Shown here one piece after another: positions 3,154-39,362 of a stretch of 64,000 nt of DNA. How positions within the stretch are numbered: the stretch's first letter is position 1; the number at the start of each line of letters is the position of its first letter. A program made the translations under genes and the position numbers. The DNA comes from Candidatus Poseidoniales archaeon (lineage in GTDB: Archaea > Thermoplasmatota > Poseidoniia > Poseidoniales > Poseidoniaceae). A model generated the notes under the pieces. That model had not been told where the DNA came from. It searched no databases and was given only the letters and a program-made list of their open reading frames with translations. The stretch spans positions 26,766-90,765 of the forward strand of contig JAYNUQ010000002.1 in assembly GCA_038116375.1 (NCBI GenBank), read 5' to 3'.

Positions 3154-3178
3154 CACTTTCACTTTCATCGACTGGGTG

Positions 3179-3487
3179 ATGAATAAGCATCCCTTCCTTC
3201 TCGGGTTTCAATGCGTTATGGGTCGAAGTGTACCGCCATGGCGAACGCGAGTAGAACACGAATTGGAACACCTCATGCCGTATCGTCGGGCGTTGTCTTC
3301 TGCCGATCAAGCGGCGTTTGATGCACTGCTCAATGAAGTGCGACAGCGTCGTTCGGCAGGAGGTTTGCTGCCCGCATTGAACACATGGCAACCCATGGTG
3401 CTCAACATGTTGGTCGGATTGATGGCGCAGGTTTCACGGCTCACGGCACAAATAGAAGCACTCGAGGAACGGCGTCGTGATGATTGA
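3179..3487 (+). CDS. hypothetical small protein, translationally coupled to the family-B polymerase
   Basis: The ORF is about 100 aa (MNKHPF... or MGRSVPPW... from 3218) and ends in a helical C-terminus. Its stop (3485-3487) overlaps the polymerase start (GTG 3477 / ATG 3480). I recognise no family. Confidence 0.5.
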   Translation: MNKHPFLLGFQCVMGRSVPPWRTRVEHELEHLMPYRRALSSADQAAFDALLNEVRQRRSAGGLLPALNTWQPMVLNMLVGLMAQVSRLTAQIEALEERRRDD

Positions 3488-5969
3488 GGGGTGGCTGCTT
3501 GATGTTCATGAAAACGAGGCCAACACCGGCATGGTGGCCTGGGTGGTCGACCGCCACGGTGTTGCGCATCGGTGTGACGTTCCTTGGCAACCCACCCTTC
3601 ACGTCCACGCAACCCATGAGCAACTGGACCGTTTGGAACACTGGTTGATGCAACCAGAAATCCAACTGCGCTTCGGTATCGGCGATGTCCGAATGACACG
3701 TGCCCGCTTGGACTTGGAGGCGACGGGCCACGTTGACGTGCTGGAACTTGGGCTACATACGTATCAACACCTTCGAGGATTGGCTGAACACGTTGAAGCC
3801 AGAGGAGACTTTCATCGGTTCAAACTCTATTCGGTCGATGCGCACCTTGCTCAGCGTTTTTTGAACGAGAACAACTGCATTCCGTTCCAACGGGTTCGAT
3901 GGTCCAGTTCATCGCCACAAAGCATCGAGCCCTTGGAGGACGGCACCATGGATTCAGGCGTCTATCCACCGTTCCACGTTGTGCGCATGCGTTTCGAACA
4001 GGGGGTCGACTCGGCGCTTCCCTCGCTTGACGGCACCGTCGAGAGCATTCATTTGGACAGCGTTAACGAGCCGGGATTGGCACCGTTTTCAGCCCCGTTC
4101 TCGGTTACGCTCAAGCGTCAAGATTTTGCGTCCATGTCGGCCATGCTCATGGCACTTCAAGACGCTCTTGCATCCATGGACCCTGACATCCTGATGTCCG
4201 CAGGTGGCGATCAGCGTTGGTTTCCGTGGCTGGTTGAGCAGGCCACACTGCACGATGTTCCTCTTCAAATCGGACGTACATCGGACGTGCTCGCTCAGAC
4301 GACGCATCAGCGAACGATTCGTTCCTACGGCCAAACTCGCCATCGTCACGGTTCGTTCTTCCTCAAAGGGCGTCTTCACCTTGACATCAAGAACAGTTTC
4401 ATCGTCAACGAAGGCGGTCTTGCCGGTTTGTTTGAACTGGCCCAACACTCGCGACAATCGGCACAAATCATCTCGCGACTTTCGCCAGGTTCGGTCATCA
4501 GCGCCATACAAATGCGGGTGGCCATGGACGACGGCGTGCTCGTGCCGTGGAAAAAAAATCGGCCCGAAGACACGAAATCTGCTCTTGATTTGCTTCATGC
4601 CGACCGAGGGGGCCTCTACCTTGATAGCCGACCTGGCGTCCATGCCTCGGTGATTGAACTCGATTTTGCAAGTCTTTTCCCGAGCATCATCGCCACCCGC
4701 AACATCTCTCCAGAGACCCTGAATTGCCCGTGTTGTCAACCCGTAGCAAAAGGGGATTTACGAGGTGTGGTCCCGTTGCATCCTGACGAAGCTGCTCAAG
4801 AATTTCGAGAACGTGCGGTGCTGTCGACCTTCGGTCACGGGTTGTTCCCCCTTTCACATGAAAAGGCGCTTTCTGTTCCAGGCCTCAACATGCACACCTG
4901 TGGGCGAACGCACGGATTTCTCGGTCGCGTGGTGGCCCCCATCATCGAACGGCGACGTGAACTGAAGCATCAACGTCAGCACAAAGGCGACGCCTTTGAC
5001 CTGCGACAGAATGCACTCAAATGGCTTCTCGTGACGTGTTTTGGATACACGGGCTACCGCAATGCTCGTTTTGGACGTATCGAGGCTCACGAAGCGATTT
5101 GTGCGTGGTCTCGAGACCTCTTGTTGACCACCATTGAAGAAGCCCAAAAAGACGGATGGAACGTTCTCCACGCCATCGTTGACTGCGTTTGGCTCTCTGA
5201 CACAGAAGGGCGTTCAAGAGACCAACAGCGCAGCGATGCTGAGGCGTTTGCCAAACGCGTAACGAAGCAGGTTGGTATACCTCTTGAATTCGAGGCGCAC
5301 TACGATTTCATCGCCTTTTTGCCGAGCCGAATGCACGGTTCAGGTTCGCTCACAAAATACTGGGCCTACGCCGAAGGCGAATTCAAAGTTCGAGGCATCG
5401 AGTTGCGCCAGCATTCCACGCCCCGATGGGTACGTGAACTTCAGCAAAGGGGATTGGAACTGTTGGCCGAAGGTGAGCGCATCGACGGACGTCCTTCCCT
5501 TCGGGCACAGCGCTCGGTCTTGGCCCATTACCGAGGCGAACTTCAGCGCTTGAACAGGAACGAAGTTCCGTTGTCAGACCTCGTCACGACACGACGAACG
5601 ACCCGGTCCATTGAGGACTATCGAGTTCGGAATTTGACCTACGGGGCTTTGATGCGCGCACACGGTCTCGGCTATGAGGTCCCTCCAGGTGGAAAGGTCC
5701 GCTATGCGGTCGTGAACCGCTCAGCTACCGATCCGATGGAACGTGTTTTGCTGGCCGAGGAAATTGAGACCTTGGGTCATCAGCACGCTGGTTGTCCTTT
5801 GCATAATGGAGAACTTGCTGAGCGAGCCATTTGGGCGCTGCTCGCTCCGTTCGGGTGGACTTCAGAACGCCTTCGCCTTGACGGCCGACAACCGAGTCTT
5901 CTGGAGTTCATTCATCCCGGTGGCGCAGAACAAGAGCCCCAACGTTTGGAGGAATCGCTTCACGATTGA
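3477..5969 (+). CDS. family-B DNA polymerase with degenerate exonuclease motifs (PolB2-like)
   Basis: Motif A is DFASLFPSIIATRNISPETL. Motif B is LKWLLVTCFGYTGYRNARFG. The KxY region is LTKYWAY..VRGIELRQH. The N-terminus (LLDV...) is typical of archaeal PolB. The positions equivalent to ExoI, ExoII and ExoIII read FSVTL, GGDQRWFPWL and HSRQS. Motif C reads HAIVDC rather than YxDTD. Confidence 0.85.
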   Translation: MMIEGWLLDVHENEANTGMVAWVVDRHGVAHRCDVPWQPTLHVHATHEQLDRLEHWLMQPEIQLRFGIGDVRMTRARLDLEATGHVDVLELGLHTYQHLRGLAEHVEARGDFHRFKLYSVDAHLAQRFLNENNCIPFQRVRWSSSSPQSIEPLEDGTMDSGVYPPFHVVRMRFEQGVDSALPSLDGTVESIHLDSVNEPGLAPFSAPFSVTLKRQDFASMSAMLMALQDALASMDPDILMSAGGDQRWFPWLVEQATLHDVPLQIGRTSDVLAQTTHQRTIRSYGQTRHRHGSFFLKGRLHLDIKNSFIVNEGGLAGLFELAQHSRQSAQIISRLSPGSVISAIQMRVAMDDGVLVPWKKNRPEDTKSALDLLHADRGGLYLDSRPGVHASVIELDFASLFPSIIATRNISPETLNCPCCQPVAKGDLRGVVPLHPDEAAQEFRERAVLSTFGHGLFPLSHEKALSVPGLNMHTCGRTHGFLGRVVAPIIERRRELKHQRQHKGDAFDLRQNALKWLLVTCFGYTGYRNARFGRIEAHEAICAWSRDLLLTTIEEAQKDGWNVLHAIVDCVWLSDTEGRSRDQQRSDAEAFAKRVTKQVGIPLEFEAHYDFIAFLPSRMHGSGSLTKYWAYAEGEFKVRGIELRQHSTPRWVRELQQRGLELLAEGERIDGRPSLRAQRSVLAHYRGELQRLNRNEVPLSDLVTTRRTTRSIEDYRVRNLTYGALMRAHGLGYEVPPGGKVRYAVVNRSATDPMERVLLAEEIETLGHQHAGCPLHNGELAERAIWALLAPFGWTSERLRLDGRQPSLLEFIHPGGAEQEPQRLEESLHD

Positions 5970-6693
5970 GGCGCCTTCTGGTGAGATGAAAACGCATTTG
6001 CGGGTCGATTTGGAGCGGCATCCATGGGCCTCTCGCACCGGATTTACGATGCTTGAGATGCAAAGTTCTCTGGCGTCGTCTTCCGCGCCATGCTCCTTCA
6101 AGGTGATTCTGTGCGTGCCGGTGAAGGTGGTGCAGCAGTCGTGAATCGGTGTGCGGTGAATGCTCCGTTCCCGTGATGGCAATGACGGCTGCATGGTGCT
6201 GTTCTGCAAGTTGGCGTAAAATGTGCACGTGTCGCTTCAGAAGCGTTCTGGATTCCAGGCGTGAAACGGCATCATCACCGTGCATGGCCATCAGGCCGTC
6301 GAGCACCACCATCGGTGAACGGGTGATGGCGAGTTCATGCGGCAGTCGCTCAATTTGGCGGTCGAGTTGGTGCAACGTGAATCCCCGACTCAGGTACAAG
6401 CGACCAAGGCAGGCTTCCACATCACCTCCCAGCGCCTCCAGAAGGGGAATGAATCGCGAGGGGTCAATTCGACAGGCACCGTCCACCCAGTGAACAACTT
6501 CACCCTGAACCAGTGCATGGGCGACCCAATGCTCGGCCACGCATCGCATGCTCTTTCCCGCCCGTCCAGGCCCGCTCAGTTGGTAGAGTTGGCCACGAGC
6601 GGGCTGAATATGCAGCGGGTCAATCCCTTGGCGCCGACGAATCAATCCTCGGGTGATGGTGCTGGCCGCCTTGATTGGTCTCATGTGAATCAT
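5908..6693 (-). CDS. RecA-fold P-loop ATPase (RadB / KaiC / ImuA-like)
   Basis: Walker A is LSGPGRAGKS and the Walker B-like segment is SPMVVLDGL, in a RecA/RadB-like arrangement (G..Y.LSGP..GKS...VHWVDGA....R). I chose the start MIHMRP at 6693. The longer ORF-track start at 6939 would run across the dinB start. Confidence 0.65.
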   Translation of the reverse strand: MIHMRPIKAASTITRGLIRRRQGIDPLHIQPARGQLYQLSGPGRAGKSMRCVAEHWVAHALVQGEVVHWVDGACRIDPSRFIPLLEALGGDVEACLGRLYLSRGFTLHQLDRQIERLPHELAITRSPMVVLDGLMAMHGDDAVSRLESRTLLKRHVHILRQLAEQHHAAVIAITGTEHSPHTDSRLLHHLHRHAQNHLEGAWRGRRRQRTLHLKHRKSGARGPWMPLQIDPQMRFHLTRRRLNREAIPPNVGALVLRHRDE

Positions 6694-6810
6694 TGAACGA
6701 GGATGTAGGTGGTCATCGTATCTTGCGAAGACCCCTCTGTTTAACTGAAGAGACACATCAACTTCAAACACCGCTGGCGCCGATGCGTGGGCGTGGTAGG
6801 CGAGCAAAAG

Positions 6811-7923
6811 ATGGCCGAACCGCTCGGGCCGAGAATTTTGATTCACTGTGATTTGGATGCCTTTTTTGCTGCGGTTGAAACCATCCACCACGGATTTGAT
6901 GAAACCGTGCCGTTGATCATTGGTTCGGACCCCAAACAAGGCCGCGGACGTGGAATTGTATCAACGTGCAATTATGCAGCCCGGGCCTATGGGATTCGCT
7001 CTGCCATGCCCGTATCTGAAGCCTGGCGTCGTTGCCCAGCAGCTCCGTTTGGACCCGCCATCTACATCCGAGGAACGCGAGGGCTGTACAGCAGAGCAAG
7101 TCGAAAAGTAATGGCGTGCTTGCAGAATTCTGCGAACCTGTTTGAAAAAGCAAGCATCGACGAAGCGTATCTTGATGTGACCGAGAATGTCGGTGGGGAT
7201 TGGGATGCCGCTCTCGCTCTTGCGAAGCACTTGCAGCAACAAATCGTTGAGGAGGTCAACCTCACCGCTTCCTTTGGTATTGGACCCACCCGCTTGGTGG
7301 CGAAAATGGCCAGCGAGGTGAACAAGCCCAACGGCATTTTCAGGGTGATGCCCGATGAGGTGAATGCGTTCTTTGAGGGTCGCTCGCTGCGTGCCATACC
7401 GGGCATCGGGCCCAAACGAGCGACTCAACTCGCTGAATGGGGCTACACCACTGCAGACGACCTCTATGCCTTGGGAGAACTTTCGTTGGCGAGCCTTGCT
7501 GGTGAACGATTCGCGGCGTGGTTCATGCGGGTCGTTGACGGTGAGAGCAGCAGCGTCGTTAGTCCACTTCGCAGCAGAAAATCCATTGGAAAAGAGCACA
7601 CCTTTGAGCGAGATGTAGCGAATCATGAAGTGGTCCTTGAACGTCTTGAACAACTGGTTGCTCTTGTCATGGAACGGGCGACGAACCTGGGGGTTTCCGG
7701 TCGATTGGCTGAAGTCAAAATTCGGTACACAGGATTTGAAACACACACTGCAGGCAGAAGCATTCCCGTCGCAATGGACGATGATGGGGTGTTCAAGCGT
7801 TTGGCCAACGGACTGTTTGCAACAAATATTCGCCCCGACAATCGGGTTCGCCTGATCGGGTTCCGACTTGGCCAACTGGAGGTGCCTCCTTCCCGACAAT
7901 CGACGCTGTTTGAGGAAGAATAG
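6811..7923 (+). CDS. dinB: Y-family DNA polymerase IV (DinB/Dpo4-like)
   Basis: ILIHCDLDAFFAAVE and the catalytic SIDEAYLDV motif are present, along with the FGIGPTRLVAKMAS and IPGIGPKRA helix-hairpin-helix regions. I prefer the ATG at 6811 (MAEPLGPRIL) over the upstream GTG at 6787. Confidence 0.9.
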   Translation: MAEPLGPRILIHCDLDAFFAAVETIHHGFDETVPLIIGSDPKQGRGRGIVSTCNYAARAYGIRSAMPVSEAWRRCPAAPFGPAIYIRGTRGLYSRASRKVMACLQNSANLFEKASIDEAYLDVTENVGGDWDAALALAKHLQQQIVEEVNLTASFGIGPTRLVAKMASEVNKPNGIFRVMPDEVNAFFEGRSLRAIPGIGPKRATQLAEWGYTTADDLYALGELSLASLAGERFAAWFMRVVDGESSSVVSPLRSRKSIGKEHTFERDVANHEVVLERLEQLVALVMERATNLGVSGRLAEVKIRYTGFETHTAGRSIPVAMDDDGVFKRLANGLFATNIRPDNRVRLIGFRLGQLEVPPSRQSTLFEEE

Positions 7924-7924
7924 C

Positions 7925-10426
7925 TCACTCGAGTTGGTGCATTCGGGTCAATGTTTCCTTGAATTCGAGGAGGCTATCGGGAACGGCAATGCCCGCAATT
8001 GGCTGGTTCAGTGAGACGCCCGCATCTTTCTTGGCCGCCCATGTTTTTCCATTGAATTCTTGCAGATCGTGTGAGAGCGAACACAGGCGTGTTCCTTCAT
8101 CCGTCCCGTGCGCCAACTCAGGAACCGGGGCGGACGGGAAGGCATCAACATCGACCGAGGATGAGCCGTATACGGTGCTTGAAATGTGGTGAGTAAAGAA
8201 CGGGCAAACGGGACTGAACGCCGCCATGAAATCCCTCACCATCCGGTGCAGTGTCCATGCCGCAGCCTCGTCTCCGTCGTACAATCTGGATTTGACCATC
8301 TCAAGGTAGTGGCTGGGAAGAAGACCCGTGCCGAAGGTTTTGAGGGCCTGCGTTGCCGTGTAGATGTCCAAATTGACCCACGCATGGTTGACGGTGTGCA
8401 TGGTGCCTTGGAATTCTGCTAAGACCCACTTGTCTTCTGGAGCAAGCGTTTCTGGGCAACGGTCCAAATCGTCTGGGACATCAAACTGCGACGCAAACCG
8501 AGCAACGTTGAAGAGTTTGGTCAGCACACCAAAGTACTTTTTCTCGATTTCTTCAGGATTGATGTGGAAATCGTCCCCAACTTGGGCATCGCATGCCTTC
8601 CACAGGCGAAAACACTCGCTGCCAATTTTATTGGCTCGAAGTTTGACTGAACCGTCTGGACCTTTCACTTGCCAGGAACCGGTTCGCCCACCTGCCCCGC
8701 ACTCCAAGACGGAGTCGGCGTCAATACCGTTGCCGAGTGACTTGCTCATTTTACGGCCCCACGGGTCCATGCCCAAACCGTCAATCCACACGTGCTGGAA
8801 TCCCGGTTGGTCCAGCACCAAAGTGGACTTCAAGAGCGTGTAATAGAGCCATGTTCGAACGATTTCCTTTCCTTGCGGGCGCAGTGCGGTCGGGAAGGCC
8901 TTTTCGAACACATCGGGGTGGTTGAGGTAACCGCTCACAAAGAGGTTGGAGTTTGAAGAATCCATCCACGTGTCAAACACTTTTTCCTCACCTTTCAACG
9001 ACCCAAGTTGCTCTGACAGTGCAGCAAAATCTCCAACGTCTTCCCGCGTTTCTCTGTTCAGCACGCGACTTCCTGCAGGGGGGGTATCTTTCCAGGGTTG
9101 GACGTAGGTTCCAGCGGGAGGGACAACAACCAACCGTTCGTCTTCGCTGTACCAGATTGGAATTTCTGTGTGGTACCATCGTCGGCGACTGATGGGCCAA
9201 TCGATGCTGATGTTGTCCATCCAGTCAAGCAGGAATTGTCGGTTCCGTACGGGGTGGAACGTGATGGATTCGATGTGCTCACGCATGCGGTCTTGGATGT
9301 GCGTTTGTCGGACATACCATTCTTTGAGAAGAATGATTTCCACTGGGTTCTTGCCACGCTCTGAAACGGGAATCTCTTGGTCGCGTTCAACGGCTTGGAT
9401 CAATCGACCCTGTTCCTCGAGAAGTTCGATGGCTTTTGCTCGTGCATCAACTACAGAGAGTCCGTGAAGCGGCCCAGCAATTTGCGTCATGTTGCCGTCA
9501 AGTCCGATGGCTTGGAAGGGTGCGAGGCCCAGTTCCCGGAACACGGCCACGTCGTTTTGGTCACCAAATGAACAGACCATCAGGACGCCGGTACCAAAAT
9601 CGGATTTGACGGAGGGGTGTTTCTGAACGGTGACGGTTTGAGACCGACCGTTGGTCGGCAGAGGCAGAGCGATTTCTTGGCCGACCAGATGTTTGTATCG
9701 CTCGTCGTCTGGATGGACCACCACGACTCCACAAGCACAGATGAGTTCCGGGCGTGTCGTGGAAATCACAAGATCGGTTCCGTCTTCACAGGTCCACCGG
9801 ACGTCAACGAGTTTTGTCTTTCGCGGCAACCGTTCAACTTCGGCATCGGCGATGGTTGTACCTTCAACAGGGTCGTAGATGTTGGGTCGGAGGTCTTCGA
9901 CGATGTCGCCTTTCTTGAACAGTTCAACGAAGATGGATTGCGTAACGCTTCTGTAATCTGGGGCATCGGTTAGGTACTCTCGTGAAAAATCGCACGAGAG
10001 TCCAACGCGCTTTGCGGTGTTTCGCATGGCTTGGGTAAAGGATTCAATGGTTGTTTCACAGAGTTTGAGAAACTCCTCTCGGTCGTAGGTTTTCATCTTC
10101 CTTTTTGTGTTCTTTTCAACGGTAAATTCGATGTTTATACCGTTCCTGTCCACGCCCCAAGGGAAGTACACTTCTTTGCCCAGTAAGCGCTGACTTCGGG
10201 CCAGAACATCGATCATCGAGTATTGAGCGACAGCACCAATGTGCCACGTTCCGGAGGGATAGGGCGGAGGCGTATCGATGACAAAGAATTCCTTCCCGCT
10301 CTCAGGATTGAAGCCGTAGCGGCCGCTGTAGGCTTGCTCGTCAGCGTAATGCGCTTCTTGGATGGTCTTTTCTAGGTCAATTGACCATCGTTTCTCGGGA
10401 AGTTTTGGGGCTGGCATGTGCCTCAC
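7925..10426 (-). CDS. valS: valine--tRNA ligase (class I aaRS)
   Basis: IDTPPPYPSGTWHIG lies at the HIGH position. The editing-domain pattern is STTRPELICACGVVVVHPDDERY. WPISRRRWYHTEIPIWY and KMSKSLGN are also present. The length of 833 aa fits archaeal ValRS. Confidence 0.75.
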   Translation of the reverse strand: MRHMPAPKLPEKRWSIDLEKTIQEAHYADEQAYSGRYGFNPESGKEFFVIDTPPPYPSGTWHIGAVAQYSMIDVLARSQRLLGKEVYFPWGVDRNGINIEFTVEKNTKRKMKTYDREEFLKLCETTIESFTQAMRNTAKRVGLSCDFSREYLTDAPDYRSVTQSIFVELFKKGDIVEDLRPNIYDPVEGTTIADAEVERLPRKTKLVDVRWTCEDGTDLVISTTRPELICACGVVVVHPDDERYKHLVGQEIALPLPTNGRSQTVTVQKHPSVKSDFGTGVLMVCSFGDQNDVAVFRELGLAPFQAIGLDGNMTQIAGPLHGLSVVDARAKAIELLEEQGRLIQAVERDQEIPVSERGKNPVEIILLKEWYVRQTHIQDRMREHIESITFHPVRNRQFLLDWMDNISIDWPISRRRWYHTEIPIWYSEDERLVVVPPAGTYVQPWKDTPPAGSRVLNRETREDVGDFAALSEQLGSLKGEEKVFDTWMDSSNSNLFVSGYLNHPDVFEKAFPTALRPQGKEIVRTWLYYTLLKSTLVLDQPGFQHVWIDGLGMDPWGRKMSKSLGNGIDADSVLECGAGGRTGSWQVKGPDGSVKLRANKIGSECFRLWKACDAQVGDDFHINPEEIEKKYFGVLTKLFNVARFASQFDVPDDLDRCPETLAPEDKWVLAEFQGTMHTVNHAWVNLDIYTATQALKTFGTGLLPSHYLEMVKSRLYDGDEAAAWTLHRMVRDFMAAFSPVCPFFTHHISSTVYGSSSVDVDAFPSAPVPELAHGTDEGTRLCSLSHDLQEFNGKTWAAKKDAGVSLNQPIAGIAVPDSLLEFKETLTRMHQLE

Positions 10427-10580: not shown

Positions 10581-13500
10581 TTGACGTCAAACGAGGATGC
10601 TTCAAATTCACCTCCATCGGGTGAAACTGGAACCGAATCCTTCGGCAACGAGCGCATTGCAGCCATTGCTGGAAAAAGTCGTCAAGTCCGAAATCAACTG
10701 GTTGACCAAATGAAAACCATGGACTCAAAACGGGCTCTGGACGCCGTCCTTGATGCACCAAAACGATTCAAGCGTGAGTGGCAAAAAACCGGAGCAACAG
10801 GGGCCATCACAAAATTCCCCATACCGACCATTCTGGTTTTCATGCTGCTCACGGTCTACTTCGTCACGCAATCGGGGTTCCTTGACGGCACGCAATTTGA
10901 TGACGACCCAGATAACCCTGCGTTGAACGTGAACGGAGACTTGGAAGTGTACCTGCCCGATGGCAGTCGTGTTGCCGAACTGATCGGTAAAGTGGAAGAA
11001 GACTGGTCAACGAACGTGATGGTGGTCTACATCGAGTCCTCAAAAAACAACATCACCGACCAACGGATTTTGCAAGAGATCAGTTATGTTGAAAACATTC
11101 TCAACCCCTATCTCTCAGACCCCTCTGACGACGTCATCTACATTCTCTCCCTGTCCACGGTGTTGAAAGAGGTCAATTCAAGCGCACCGAGAATTCGAGA
11201 AGCAGTCATCACCGAGGTGGGTGAGTTGGGTTGCTCAAACAATCCTGAGGATGACTGTCCATCCCGTGAGTTGGCAACCGAAATGAACGATGCATTTGCT
11301 CTGACCGACGAACAACTCGGGGGTTCGTACGAAATTCCCAGCCAAACCACCATCGACCTCGTCATTGGTGAAATGTACACCGACGAGGGTGAACCCTCTG
11401 CGGGCATGAACAAGCTCGCACGTGATATCGAGGGCGGAGAAGACGGTGGACCCGACGGTTTGCTTGACCGAGCGATCATGGCCATTGCCGTCACAGAAGA
11501 CCGCCCTGCAAAAGACATCATTGCAGATACGCAAGAGGTCCTTGATACCATTTCTTCAATGGAGCGAGCCTGCCTGTACGACGCAAACGGTGAACCTGTT
11601 GAATCCGAAGGTCTGTGCAATTGGGAAGACTTGGGACTTTCCATGGTGTTGACGGGTCCTGTTCCAATCACCAACGCCGTCACCGAATTTTCCTTCAAGT
11701 TGTTTTGGGATATTTTCCCGAAAGCCGTTGTCTTGGTGGCCATCGGGCTGTTTGTGTTCCACTCTGACCTTCTGCAGGCTGGACTAACCGGCATACGTCC
11801 CCTTCAAGGTTTCAAAGTGATTGTCATTGCTGGACTCCCTACGCTGTGTGCCGTGTTTTGGACGCTGGGCCTCATCGGCGCGACAAATTACGAAGTCACC
11901 ATGACCGTCATCATCGTTGGCCCCATCTTACTTGCGTTGGGTGTATCTTACGGGTTACACATCACCAATCGATACGCTGAAGAAGAGGGAAGCAAGGACG
12001 AAAAAATGCGTGCATCGTTGAGCTCAACGGGCCGTGCCGTCTTCCTCTCTGCCGTTACAACGGTCATTGGTTTCATTTCCCTTGTTTTCACGCCGATGGC
12101 CCCCATTCAAACGGTCGGAATCGCGCTTTCAGGCGGCATTGTCATCGTCTATTTGCTCACGATGTTTATGGTACCCAACCTCACCCTCATCTTGGATTTG
12201 AAGAAACCGAAACACGCACCGTTGAAGGCCTTTGATGTCCTCGTAGATGTCCCAGTCAAACGCAACAAGGGCGTTATTGGTGTGTTTATCTTGATGATTA
12301 TGCTCTCAGCCACGATCGGTCAAGCCAACGTCGAGGAAAACATCGATTTGCTCGGAATGGCCCCCGAAGGTGAATCCCCTGTTGTCAAGATGAAGCAGTA
12401 CAGTTCGGAGTTTGAGGCCGGTCAAGTGGGTATGATTCTGGTCAACGCCAACGTCAGCGGTGATTTCAACGACGAGGACCTTTCAAACGACGATCCCGTA
12501 GAAATTTTGCAGAAAATTGACAACCTCGAGGCCTCATTGAACACGGTGGAGAACACCACGGCCGTTTCCGTTGTGTTCTTGATGAAATCCTCAGGTATCC
12601 AGGTCACCGTTTCAGGCGAACAAGCCAACGAGTTGTTTCAGTTGATTCCGTGTGCAGGGAACGAACAATGCGAGGACGTGAAGGCTACCGCCAGCATCCT
12701 GTTGAATCAGAGCCAGTCCCTCGACGCATCGTTTTGGGACTTGCTCAACGACCCCGATGCCTTCGGTCTTCCTGGTTCGCAACAGAGCCAAATCTTCCTT
12801 CTCGATGTGTTCTATGCCTCTTTGACCAAAGAGACCCGAGAAATTTTCGTAAGCGAGGATTTCAGTCGCTCCCTCATCTACGTTGACATGCCGTTCATCC
12901 CTGTCGCAGATACCGCAAAAAGCGTAGATTCCGTCAATGAGAAAGCGGCAACGTTCCAAGGAAGGTACGGAGAAAGTGCCGAGGAATTGACGGGTGTGGC
13001 TGCTACGGCGATTGAAGTCAACGAACTCATCGTTGGTTCACAATGGACGTCGCTTGGGTTTGCTATCATCCTCACCCTCATCACCCTCGCCATCGTGTTC
13101 AGGGACATCAGATACTCCATTTGGACCACCTCCCCGGTCATCGCTACGGTGGCATTGCAGTGGCTTGTCATGTGGCGAATGGATGTTCCCCTCTCGCTTG
13201 TCACGGTCATGATCGGTTCTATTCTGGTTGGCGTGGGCGTTGACTTCTCAATTCACATCGCCAATCGAATTCGGGAACTTGGAGGGGGCATCCAGGCCAT
13301 TCGGAGTGCTGCCGTGGGTACGGGCATGTCGTTGTTTGAAGCGGCCGTCGTAACTTCCCTCGGTATGTTCACGGCCTACGACATTCCCATCCCGGAAATC
13401 ACCCCGTTTATCACCGTGATTCTCATTCTTTTGTGGGTGGCAGCGGCGAGCGCACTCATCCTCTTGCCTGCCATCTTTGTGACCCTCGAAAAAATGGGCA

Positions 13501-38546: not shown

Positions 38547-38572
38547 TAGGCGACGGCCATCTTATGGGATAG

Positions 38573-38867
38573 GTGGGGAGCTCGGCGTACCCTGAATCAC
38601 AAATCGTCGTTATGGTGGACCGAACGCCTTGGGGCGGCGGAAGCGGCCGTGGGGTTCCCGTAGGCGGACGTTGATGTCTCGCCCCCACATGACTCGGGTG
38701 TCATGAACCGTCTCCGGAAGGAAACGGGGAGTGAATAACCGGGGGACTAGGTCAGGCCGGGAACGGAGCAGCCCTACCTGGGGCCATGGGTGCTGTGGGG
38801 ATCCGGGATGGAGGAAGCTTGCGGATTTGGCCTTGCGAAGCGCACGTCCACCCTTGGCTCTCCCACC
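38573..38867 (+). ncRNA. signal recognition particle RNA (archaeal 7S type, about 295 nt)
   Basis: The helix-8 core GGUCAGGCCGGGAACGGAGCAGCC (about 38749-38772) matches the universally conserved SRP RNA motif (E. coli 4.5S: GGUCAGGUCCGGAAGGAAGCAGCC) and has a GNRA loop. An upstream helix-6-like hairpin has a GGAA loop (CCGUCUCCGGAAGGAAACGG). The 5' GGUGGGGAGC pairs with the 3' GCUCUCCCACC to close the molecule. The region has no credible protein ORF. Confidence 0.85.
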
Positions 38868-39362
38868 TCAAATGTCAAAGACGACGTCAGCGTACCATCC
38901 GGGTCCATCGAACTCAGGAACATCGTCCCACTCACTTCTGATGGTTGTGCCAGTGAGGACTTCGCTGACCACGAAATTGTGCGTGGTAACCGCCTTGATC
39001 TCAACCTCACGCTCAATCTCGCTTGCGTCAACCCACGATACTTGTGCTACGATAGAGAGTGCCTCTTCGGTTCTCTCAATTTTTACCATACCGTCCATAA
39101 ACCATTGATTCTTGACTTCCGAACGATAGAGGACTTCGTCAAGCCACGCCATGTAGAGGAATTCGTAGTCAAACGGACTGTGTTCCGACTGAACCCGCCA
39201 CTCCCCCGTGTGGCGGACGTGGGAATTGATGGTCCTGGCACTGTTTTCGCTCAACAAATAGGTTTGGATGCCGTGAGCCGCCTCGATGAGTAAACGTGAG
39301 TAGGAATTCGCGAAGACTCGCATGCCAATGTCAGCGGTCGTCGGCCAAAACCACGCACTCAT
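38868..39362 (-). CDS. hypothetical protein
   Basis: This 164-aa ORF starts 9 nt downstream of the sugar-kinase gene on the same strand and is probably co-transcribed with it. I recognise no motif. Confidence 0.55.
   Translation of the reverse strand: MSAWFWPTTADIGMRVFANSYSRLLIEAAHGIQTYLLSENSARTINSHVRHTGEWRVQSEHSPFDYEFLYMAWLDEVLYRSEVKNQWFMDGMVKIERTEEALSIVAQVSWVDASEIEREVEIKAVTTHNFVVSEVLTGTTIRSEWDDVPEFDGPGWYADVVFDI

Follow-up and report, generated by a model that had tools for sequence, protein, structure and literature searches.

A very probable Marine Group II version of the archaeal PolB2 translesion-synthesis complex, with a conserved tandem hexamer upstream and DinB as a neighbour

The stretch of DNA analysed here (referred to throughout as the window) comprises 64,000 nucleotides of contig JAYNUQ010000002.1 from a Candidatus Poseidoniales archaeon, and the subject of this report is a group of genes near its beginning which encode a PolB2-type DNA polymerase, two small partner proteins named PPB2 and iRadA, and a neighbouring Y-family polymerase, DinB. 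PPB2 (arCOG07300 / DUF8156; 89 amino acids (aa), consisting of an MGRSVPPWR arm and then three helices) is encoded on the plus strand at 3218..3487, within a small open reading frame (ORF) that can be drawn from 3122 or from 3179 to 3487, and its TGA stop codon (3485-3487) overlaps the start of the polymerase gene, by 11 nt if the polymerase begins at GTG 3477 and by 8 nt if it begins at ATG 3480. The polymerase itself, a Dpo2-type B-family enzyme by its motifs, its Pfam match and its orthology, occupies 3477..5969 on the plus strand (830 aa, or 829 aa from ATG 3480) and converges on the gene for iRadA (5908..6693, minus strand, 261 aa), assigned by fold, profile search and orthology as a paralogue of the RadA/Rad51 core, the two coding 3' ends overlapping by 62 nt (5908-5969). 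iRadA in turn diverges from dinB across exactly 117 nt (6694..6810), a spacer with conserved blocks on both strands, and dinB (6811..7923, plus strand) encodes a Y-family Pol IV of 370 aa, as indicated by Pfam, NCBIfam and its catalytic motifs. Upstream of PPB2, also on the plus strand, lie a tandem hexamer, ACTTTCACTTTCA (3155..3167, approximately 63 nt 5' of the PPB2 ATG), which is a candidate for a shared cis-regulatory (damage-response-like) element, and a promoter-proximal block, GGGTG-N5-ATAAGCATCC (3174..3192), which is a putative BRE/TATA (B recognition element and TATA box) region for a near-leaderless PPB2-PolB2 transcript. An earlier account of this DNA, made from its letters without database searches (the sequence-only reading), had described four genes, the small-ORF stop overlapping the polymerase start and the 117-nt spacer, all of which are present; it also had the position, convergence and overlap of the RecA-fold gene right, but gave its product as 262 aa rather than 261.

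Relatives of the locus were collected by a scan of one genome per species, which yielded 186, and the locus counts given below refer to the best 80 of these 186, all of which are metagenome-assembled genomes (MAGs) of Poseidoniales. The order PPB2, PolB2 and then iRadA facing them was kept in 80/80 related loci wherever the extent of the contig permits, and iRadA lay next to PolB2 on the opposite strand in 79 of the 80, the eightieth contig (L065) stopping approximately 100 nt past PolB2; such a recurrence of the gene arrangement is far beyond chance. The sequence-only reading had proposed that conservation of the whole neighbourhood be checked in related genomes, and here the three-gene core held in 80/80 viewable loci, but the fourth gene partly failed, about 30 of the 80 having no DinB. 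In most loci the 3' ends of PolB2 and iRadA overlap (62 nt in 20 loci, 4-167 nt elsewhere), with a few short gaps. In both proteins the part encoded by the overlap is a poorly conserved C-terminal tail, and antisense or transcriptional-interference effects arising from it are possible.

The polymerase has a Pfam DNA_pol_B match (E 3e-18), while its best NCBIfam matches, NF004418 (393 bits) and NF004416, are both under their cut-offs. Motif A reads LDFASLFPS (containing D396), motif B KWLLVTCFGYTGY and motif C VLHAIVDCVW (containing D569), and D396 and D569, which align to D404 and D542 of the KOD polymerase, are both kept in 75-80 of 81 sequences. Motif C has I567-V568-D569 in place of D-x-D and aligns to 401-IID-403 of the S. 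islandicus enzyme; haloarchaeal PolB2 members likewise show IVD (table in PMC11791011). In the loop before motif A, D376-R377 is invariant in the orthologue alignment and aligns to 253-DK-254 of S. islandicus, and this D(K/R) motif has been defined as PolB2-specific (PMC11791011). The suggestion in the sequence-only reading that the enzyme is exonuclease-dead was borne out, as no Pfam match to an exonuclease domain (PF03104) was found in PolB2, the Exo II catalytic Asp of KOD is aligned with a Trp in the window polymerase, and no conserved acidic residues were present among the PolB2 orthologues in the strand equivalent to Exo I. At the C-terminus a box resembling that of PCNA-interacting proteins (PIP-like), QPSLLEFI (Q-x-x-L-x-x-F), aligns to the PCNA-binding tail of KOD. 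Overall identity is 29% to S. islandicus Dpo2, 52% to the orthologue EHR76801 (locus L056) and 74% to MBN29951 (locus L013). Its motifs and relatives mark the polymerase as a B-family enzyme of the PolB2/Dpo2 type that has lost proofreading, and the earlier likening to PolB2/Dpo2-type polymerases with degenerate motifs and a link to damage tolerance agrees with both the motifs and the published PolB2 orthologues. Compared to S. islandicus Dpo2, the Poseidoniales PolB2 has an insertion of approximately 43 aa behind motif A (window 4737-4880, PolB2 residues ~421-468). It is bracketed by invariant C417, C419 and C420 on one side and H473 and C475 on the other, with P433, L434, F457 and P458 conserved within it; a metal or disulfide cluster is conceivable here, as is a partner-binding loop.

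For iRadA, an AlphaFold model (mean predicted local distance difference test score, pLDDT, 81.6; residues 1-20 disordered) gave as its top Foldseek matches the ATPase cores of Rad51, Dmc1 and RadA (E ~1e-11, template modelling (TM) scores of 0.6-0.7), and matched the isolated RadA ATPase domain 4a6x with a TM score of 0.70 (target-normalised); the model is without an N-terminal helix-hairpin-helix (HhH)/oligomerisation domain. A profile search against the PDB returned RadA (E 2.6e-10), with IDTE aligned to vDGa, and Pfam gave a weak Rad51 match. The catalytic Glu of the RadA IDTE is replaced by Ala73 in iRadA, and DGA is kept in at least 90% of orthologues; at the Walker-A Lys position 79 orthologues have K in 52, R in 15, another residue in 11 and one gap, and the Walker-A Ser/Thr is present in 59/79. 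The protein is 66% identical to MBN29950, which is called iRadA in PMC11791011, and the family is restricted to the PolB2 context (73 homologues, all of the same type). With Ala in place of the catalytic Glu and a Walker-A Lys that varies across the family, iRadA is, judged by its residues, an inactivated RadA paralogue, as published. The “RecA/ImuA-like ATPase” of the sequence-only reading had to be given up, the catalytic Glu being Ala, the Walker-A Lys being found in only 52/79 and the lineage being that of RadA/Rad51. An active ATPase with an intact Walker A as a feature of the family was likewise rejected, because the Lys and Ser are not conserved.

Similarity searches with these two proteins do raise the alternative of a replicative PolB (B3) paired with a housekeeping RadB, in that the best solved-structure matches of the polymerase are Thermococcales PolB3 enzymes and the best NCBIfam match of the RecA-fold protein is the RadB equivalog TIGR02237. 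These matches are weak, however (approximately 110 bits, covering palm and thumb only, for the polymerase; 26.6 bits against a cut-off of 172.4, and so not reached, for RadB), and the dead exonuclease, the IVD motif C, a DR motif specific to PolB2 and the presence of PPB2 as partner all speak against a replicative enzyme, just as the replaced catalytic Glu and the confinement of the RecA-fold family to the PolB2 context speak against RadB. We therefore regard this pairing, contradicted by both motifs and context, as highly improbable. A replicative PolB, an ordinary RadB and a neighbourhood that is not conserved were the outcomes which the sequence-only reading had named as counting against it, and for the three-gene core none of them was found.

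The conserved start of the small coupled gene is ATG 3218, giving 89 aa with the N-terminus MGRSVPPWR, and an MGR[ST] N-terminus with Arg3 and Arg9 is found in 77/77 complete orthologous loci (MGRS 41, MGRT 36). ATG 3179 lies inside a conserved promoter block and is not itself conserved, being TTG in L004 and without a counterpart in L001. Most likely, then, to judge from these alignments, the gene starts at 3218 and not at 3179; the sequence-only reading was right that a small coupled gene exists, but its ORF of roughly 100 aa from 3179 is longer than the conserved start allows. The N-terminus in the window and across the family agrees with the published “MGRT” arm of PPB2, which carries two DNA-facing arginines, Arg3/Arg9 (PMC11791011). 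A single-sequence model (pLDDT 75) has a free arm and helices at residues 7-25, 28-43 and 50-88, alignment of the PPB2 family profile with S. islandicus PPB2 by hhalign gave an E of 7e-5 (probability 63%) over residues 1-47, that is, the arm plus helix 1, and the orthologue in L204 carries a precomputed match to PF26485 (DUF8156).

A set of genes of this kind is already in the literature. Makarova et al. 2014 (PMC4104785) predicted an operon of an “inactivated” PolB2, a helical protein of approximately 90 aa (arCOG07300) and a RadA paralogue, likewise inactivated. The names PPB2 and iRadA for the two partners come from Timinskas, Timinskas & Venclovas 2025 (PMC11791011), who modelled a heteropentamer of PolB2, iRadA and three copies of PPB2 in 40 species and likened it to the Pol V mutasome. 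The supplement of the latter paper lists Poseidoniales operons as group “3b (PPB2-PolB2-iRadA)”, and two of the published operons are loci of our set, the EHR76801 set being L056 (CM001443.1, the original Marine Group II (MG-II) genome) and the MBN29951 set being L013. Because orthologues of the locus are in this published PolB2 dataset, the three-gene core is already known, Poseidoniales included: group 3b has the same three genes in the same order and lineage, and the flanking Pfams IMS, 2-Hacid_dh_C, tRNA-synt_1 and Lactamase_B are recorded there too. That paper makes no mention of the DinB neighbour, of an overlapping iRadA on the opposite strand or of a promoter motif. What is left as new here is modest: the promoter element, the constant convergence and overlap of iRadA with PolB2 and, in one clade, the pairing with DinB. 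We consider it very probable that the locus encodes the form which the archaeal PolB2 translesion-synthesis (TLS) complex takes in Poseidoniales; the module would then be a damage-tolerance “mutasome”, with the small protein and the RecA-fold protein as dedicated PolB2 partners. Among the damage-induced mutagenic polymerase systems of archaea the PolB2 mutasome is the main one; it was long mis-annotated as “inactivated”, and the archaea of Marine Group II (MGII), exposed to ultraviolet (UV) light in the surface ocean, are here confirmed to carry its full gene set.

The published models of the two Poseidoniales complexes have ranking scores of 0.866 (EHR76801/EHR76800/EHR76802) and 0.807 (MBN29951/50/52) (PMC11791011). 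The deposited PPB2 of the second, MBN29952 from L013, begins at an internal Met (MRVEAELQ...), and the nine residues MGRSVPSWR have been dropped although the DNA encodes them, so that the score of 0.807 was obtained with a truncated protein compared to 0.866 for the MG-II model with the full arm. PPB2 starts are evidently prone to mis-calling, and a mis-call deletes the functionally critical N-terminal arm.

The Sulfolobus/Saccharolobus Dpo2 system (group 3a, with a SiRe_0614-type PPB2) resembles the present one in a motif C without the first Asp (IID compared to IVD here), a dead exonuclease, the DK/DR motif, the MGRT/MGRS arm of PPB2 and an inactive RadA-derived partner, and in the literature the Sulfolobus genes are damage-induced via Orc1-2 and ANTTTC and act as a TLS extender. 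It differs in that Sulfolobus Dpo2 is much smaller (the window ORF has 830 aa, and entries in the pentamer models have 1331-1332 residues for MGII compared to 1010 for S. islandicus), the MGII enzyme having a fuller, though inactive, N-terminal/exonuclease region in addition to the insertion after motif A and the C-terminal PIP-like box. iRadA too is less reduced here, with 261 aa and a recognisable P-loop compared to 191 aa and strong decay in Sulfolobus, and it is convergently transcribed in our loci. E. coli Pol V (UmuD'2C-RecA-ATP) is likewise a TLS polymerase with a small oligomeric protein that inserts an N-terminal arm, and with one RecA/Rad51-family subunit bound via an oligomerisation-like motif (the analogy drawn in PMC11791011); unlike the present system, Pol V is a Y-family rather than a B-family polymerase, its accessory protein is unrelated, and it uses the recombinase of the cell, whereas the present system has a dedicated, inactive paralogue as its RecA-family subunit.

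Since iRadA lies on the other strand it cannot be co-transcribed with PPB2 and PolB2, and co-expression of the three would presumably be brought about by a shared upstream element. The subunit genes do not form a simple operon, iRadA being always convergent and usually overlapping PolB2, and their co-expression probably runs via a shared tandem hexamer. On the PPB2 side this hexamer, ACTTTCACTTTC(A), at 3155-3167, is situated 63 nt before the PPB2 ATG and 2 nt past the stop codon of the 2-hydroxyacid dehydrogenase gene; its exact 12-mer has a single occurrence in the 64-kb window, where it is also the sole strong match to a position weight matrix (PWM) for the element. With up to 2 mismatches, the element was found at -61 to -81 from PPB2 in 64/77 loci, compared to approximately 0.9% of random 110-nt windows, and it is followed by GGGTC-N4-6-AAAGAT or AAGCAT (family consensus), with position and sequence kept across divergent loci. 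On the iRadA side the element, oriented towards its gene just as at PPB2 and with GGGTC-N5-AAGAT after it here too, is found at -59 to -65, again with up to 2 mismatches, in 29/74 loci (background 0.9%); this copy is near-perfect in the more divergent lineages (ACTTTCACTTTC, ATTTTCACTTTC) and degenerate (TTCAGTTCA-like) in the Poseidonia group, the window included. Along the minus strand of the window spacer, read in the orientation of iRadA, are GGGGTC (6730-6735), AAGAT and the degenerate tandem copy, and along the plus strand is a DinB-proximal conserved block, CATCAACTTCAAACACC (6756-6772). When the PWM was run over approximately 1 Mb of loci it gave 105 matches, of which 100 were at the two expected promoter positions and in the expected orientation, in a specificity test that is partly circular because the PWM had been built from these promoter sites. 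No further tandem copies above chance were present in the window (6 matches with 2 mismatches compared to 5.6 expected, and one sub-threshold PWM match inside a gene), no regulon members besides PPB2-PolB2 were visible in its 64 kb, and no description of the tandem promoter element was found in the literature consulted.

The Sulfolobus damage-response element, 5'-ANTTTC-3', is bound by Orc1-2, and dpo2 is Orc1-2-dependent (Sun et al. 2018, PMC6061795; Le et al. 2017). At the level of sequence ACTTTC fits the ANTTTC hexamer and, as in the Sulfolobales, it is placed 5' of the basal promoter of PolB2 genes. The Sulfolobales element is a single hexamer at -23 to -55, whereas here two hexamers, or sometimes three, follow one another as direct tandem repeats at approximately -52 to -70 from the ATG, and the Sulfolobales system belongs to a different phylum. 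Our hypothesis is that the tandem hexamer responds to DNA damage, as an element of the Orc1-2/ANTTTC type. It fits the only characterised archaeal damage-response element, which hints that regulation of the Orc1-2 type may reach beyond the Thermoproteota.

Putting these features together, we propose that PPB2 and PolB2 would be translationally coupled on one transcript, with iRadA transcribed convergently from a promoter of its own, and that the tandem ACTTTC hexamer followed by GGGTC-N5-AAGAT, whose conservation approximately 60 nt before both is seen directly, may serve to co-express PPB2 and iRadA. Going by homology with the published AlphaFold models and with Sulfolobus genetics and biochemistry, a single copy each of PolB2 and iRadA would assemble with a trimer of PPB2 into a heteropentamer in which the MGR(S/T) arm of one PPB2 is wedged between PolB2 and iRadA, beside the DNA. 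iRadA would act as a structural subunit without ATPase activity, gripped by a Rad51-oligomerisation-like loop of PolB2 situated just before D376-R377. PolB2, with two metal-binding Asp residues (D396 and D569) and no proofreading, would be expected to extend mismatched or lesion-paired primer ends, and its C-terminal QxxLxxF box may tether it to PCNA.

Several observations weigh against this account, or against parts of it. It takes complex formation, polymerase activity and damage induction over from work on Sulfolobus and from in silico models, and it argues membership of the PolB2 clade from diagnostic motifs and from orthology to published members. The window iRadA itself reads GPGRAGKS, which is a canonical GxxxxGKS, and Walker-B Asp132 is conserved; as the GxxxxGKS and the Walker-B Asp are kept, nucleotide binding by this particular protein is possible. 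Alignment of the iRadA profile with S. islandicus iRadA by hhalign showed no significant similarity (E 0.25), a null result which we attribute to the documented extreme divergence of these families rather than to non-homology, iRadA families having diverged beyond recognition (Makarova et al. 2014, PMC4104785). As for regulation, the copy of the tandem element that precedes iRadA in the window (6741-6754, minus strand, read as GTCTCTTCAGTTAA) is under the PWM threshold, the ANTTTC match amounts to five specified bases per hexamer and may be coincidence, and no orc1/cdc6 gene is present in the window or recorded near group 3b operons (PMC11791011).

The remaining gene, dinB, has Pfam matches to IMS (E 1e-38), IMS_C (E 3e-19) and HHH, and reaches 272 bits with the NCBIfam Pol IV model NF002677 against a cut-off of 256. 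Its catalytic motifs are intact (D14-L-D16-A-F-F and S-I-D117-E118; DLDAFF, SIDEAY), and on these grounds it is an ordinary, catalytically intact Pol IV, which bears out the apparently active DinB of the sequence-only reading. The C-terminus (window 7894-7923) is SRQSTLFEEE, the form across Poseidonia-group loci being SRQ(S/T)TLF(E)EEE and elsewhere RQAKLLLEEE or RQE(T/R)L(L/V). In its residues this tail looks like a clamp-binding motif nearer to the bacterial QLxLF type than to the canonical archaeal PIP box.

The intact catalytic set bears directly upon the proposal, made in the sequence-only reading, that the four genes are an archaeal analogue of the bacterial ImuA/ImuB/DnaE2 cassette, with the RecA-like protein in the place of ImuA, DinB in that of ImuB and a B-family enzyme replacing DnaE2. 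Superficially the parts do match, a RecA-fold protein, a Y-family polymerase and an error-prone member of a replicase family being encoded side by side, and both would be damage-tolerance cassettes. ImuB, however, is a catalytically dead scaffold, whereas the DinB here has all of its catalytic residues and scores above the Pol IV cut-off; DnaE2 is a C-family polymerase; ImuA is of the RecA lineage, whereas the RecA-fold protein here is of the RadA/Rad51 lineage; PPB2 has no Imu counterpart; DinB is not conserved and is dispensable for the neighbourhood; and the structural analogy published is with Pol V (UmuD'2C-RecA) rather than with Imu. The DinB catalytic motifs and the patchy adjacency of DinB largely refute the Imu analogy, which we consider very unlikely, and the module is instead the PolB2-PPB2-iRadA one already published.

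Whether DinB belongs functionally with that published module is a separate question. In about 50/80 Poseidoniales loci it is head-to-head with iRadA, and the same loci also keep the 2-hydroxyacid dehydrogenase, a 384-aa ORF, a protein of the metallo-beta-lactamase (MBL) fold and a class I aminoacyl-tRNA synthetase. DinB is not present within 6 kb in about 30/80 loci, in which PolB2 is 48-50% identical to that of the window and this whole set of neighbours, with DinB among them, has been swapped for unrelated genes. Table S1 of PMC11791011 records IMS in 56/1823 PolB2 neighbourhoods; of its 95 group 3b operons 46 have IMS, 45 2-Hacid_dh_C, 42 tRNA-synt_1 and 32 Lactamase_B, and outside group 3b IMS was recorded in 10 of approximately 1730. 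The “mutasome-like” four-gene module of the sequence-only reading is consequently reduced to its PPB2/PolB2/iRadA core, DinB having been adjacent in only about 50/80 loci. Because the adjacency always comes with unrelated flanking genes, membership of DinB in the module is unproven, and from its distribution DinB appears to be a lineage-level synteny neighbour whose functional coupling is possible.

Such coupling would make DinB a functional fourth member, co-regulated with iRadA from the 117-nt spacer and acting as lesion inserter for the PolB2 extender. The iRadA-DinB pair is found head-to-head at PolB2 identities from 100% down to 50%, and it survives in L038 (PolB2 6001-8403; iRadA 10700-11371), where an insertion of approximately 2.25 kb separates PolB2 from iRadA. 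Wherever DinB is present, the tandem element sits within the shared spacer, approximately 50-75 nt from both start codons, and both DinB and PolB2 end in clamp-binding-like motifs. Dpo2 is an extender which inserts poorly opposite lesions, and its authors have raised the question of a cooperating polymerase (Feng et al. 2022). The eukaryotic-type arrangement of Pol zeta with a Y-family polymerase in two-polymerase TLS also offers a parallel, with a proofreading-less B-family extender that has accessory subunits and a Y-family inserter, here encoded next door; the accessory subunits of Pol zeta are unrelated, and cooperation between DinB and PolB2 is conjectural here. Against a functional role for DinB, the adjacency is indistinguishable from inherited synteny, the tandem element is oriented towards iRadA and not towards DinB, DinB has a separate conserved upstream block of its own across loci (CATCAACTT(C/G)AAACACC), the frequency of IMS outside group 3b is, by a rough estimate, about that of chance, and Sulfolobus dpo4 is, according to the literature, neither damage-induced nor required for Dpo2-dependent mutagenesis. 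On balance we find a functional fourth member rather unlikely, and that DinB may supply the insertion step which PolB2 extends is offered as a hypothesis; an active DinB that shares a regulatory spacer in a large Poseidoniaceae clade does offer genomic-context support where the identity of the polymerase inserting opposite lesions ahead of PolB2 is concerned.

The tandem element may also reach beyond this locus. A metagenome scan for the full promoter architecture gave mostly chance matches in unrelated GC (guanine plus cytosine) backgrounds, and recovered PPB2 promoters and one recurrent gene of 165 aa. The promoter of this 165-aa ORF reads TTCACTTTCACTTTCA-N6-GGGTC-N5-AAAGAA, with the ATG approximately 41 nt further on, and its product (MRQLRTVIRSM...VGCEDGSVHMVG) has only weak beta-propeller Pfam matches. 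It adjoins a TFB (TFIIB) gene and the gene for adenylosuccinate synthetase on marine archaeal contigs with a GC content of approximately 0.44, being found at L135:8131-8694 and also in L103, L108, L114, L120, L123, L132, L136, L142, L144, L151, L174, L177, L194 and L201-L203. Its family numbers 74, under the name “Euryarchaeota archaeon”, and some members lie on contigs of 0.84-1.98 Mb; no homologue of the ORF was found in the window. As the 165-aa gene has an identical promoter layout, the pattern suggests that the tandem element serves more than one transcription unit, and the gene is a candidate further regulon member. One could go on to imagine a small Poseidoniales DNA-damage regulon, operating via tandem ACTTTC, that coordinates the PolB2 mutasome, despite the inversion of iRadA onto the opposite strand, and via the shared divergent spacer also DinB in an inserter/extender two-polymerase TLS and has the 165-aa gene as a further member; we hold this only tentatively and think it less likely than not to be correct in full. 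If true, it would place a system related to Orc1-2/ANTTTC, so far seen only in Sulfolobales, in the most abundant archaea of the surface ocean.

The wider setting of the locus is chromosomal. An archaeal signal recognition particle (SRP) RNA gene at 38562-38868 (Rfam RF01857, 120.6 bits) marks the window as archaeal, close homologues are all named Poseidonia or Poseidoniales (Marine Group II, Thermoplasmatota), and the remaining genes are ordinary ones (aminoacyl-tRNA synthetase, SHMT, topoisomerase I, transhydrogenase, TatC and others); the 64 kb yielded no tRNA genes. This setting also decides upon a mobile element with its own polymerase (a casposon, pipolin or provirus), which comes to mind because self-replicating elements often bear divergent B-family polymerases. 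The chromosomal context is, however, stable across at least 50 genomes, there are no integrase, Cas1 or terminal-protein features among the neighbouring genes, GC content is flat across the region, and the polymerase groups with PolB2; a mobile origin is contradicted by the conserved synteny and seems to us barely conceivable.

Two observations on individual loci may be added. L024 (NZEQ01000045.1), labelled “Verrucomicrobiales bacterium”, carries a Poseidoniales block of PolB2, iRadA, DinB and aminoacyl-tRNA synthetase with 71-89% protein identity to the window, and because such an archaeal block stands on a contig with a bacterial label, it is almost certainly a mis-binned archaeal contig. 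In L075 (3852-5663) and L078 (3687-5657), which belong to lineages without the DinB neighbour, an ORF of 603-656 aa with a weak match to the DNA-photolyase N-terminal domain lies directly 5' of PPB2, a further association with DNA repair.

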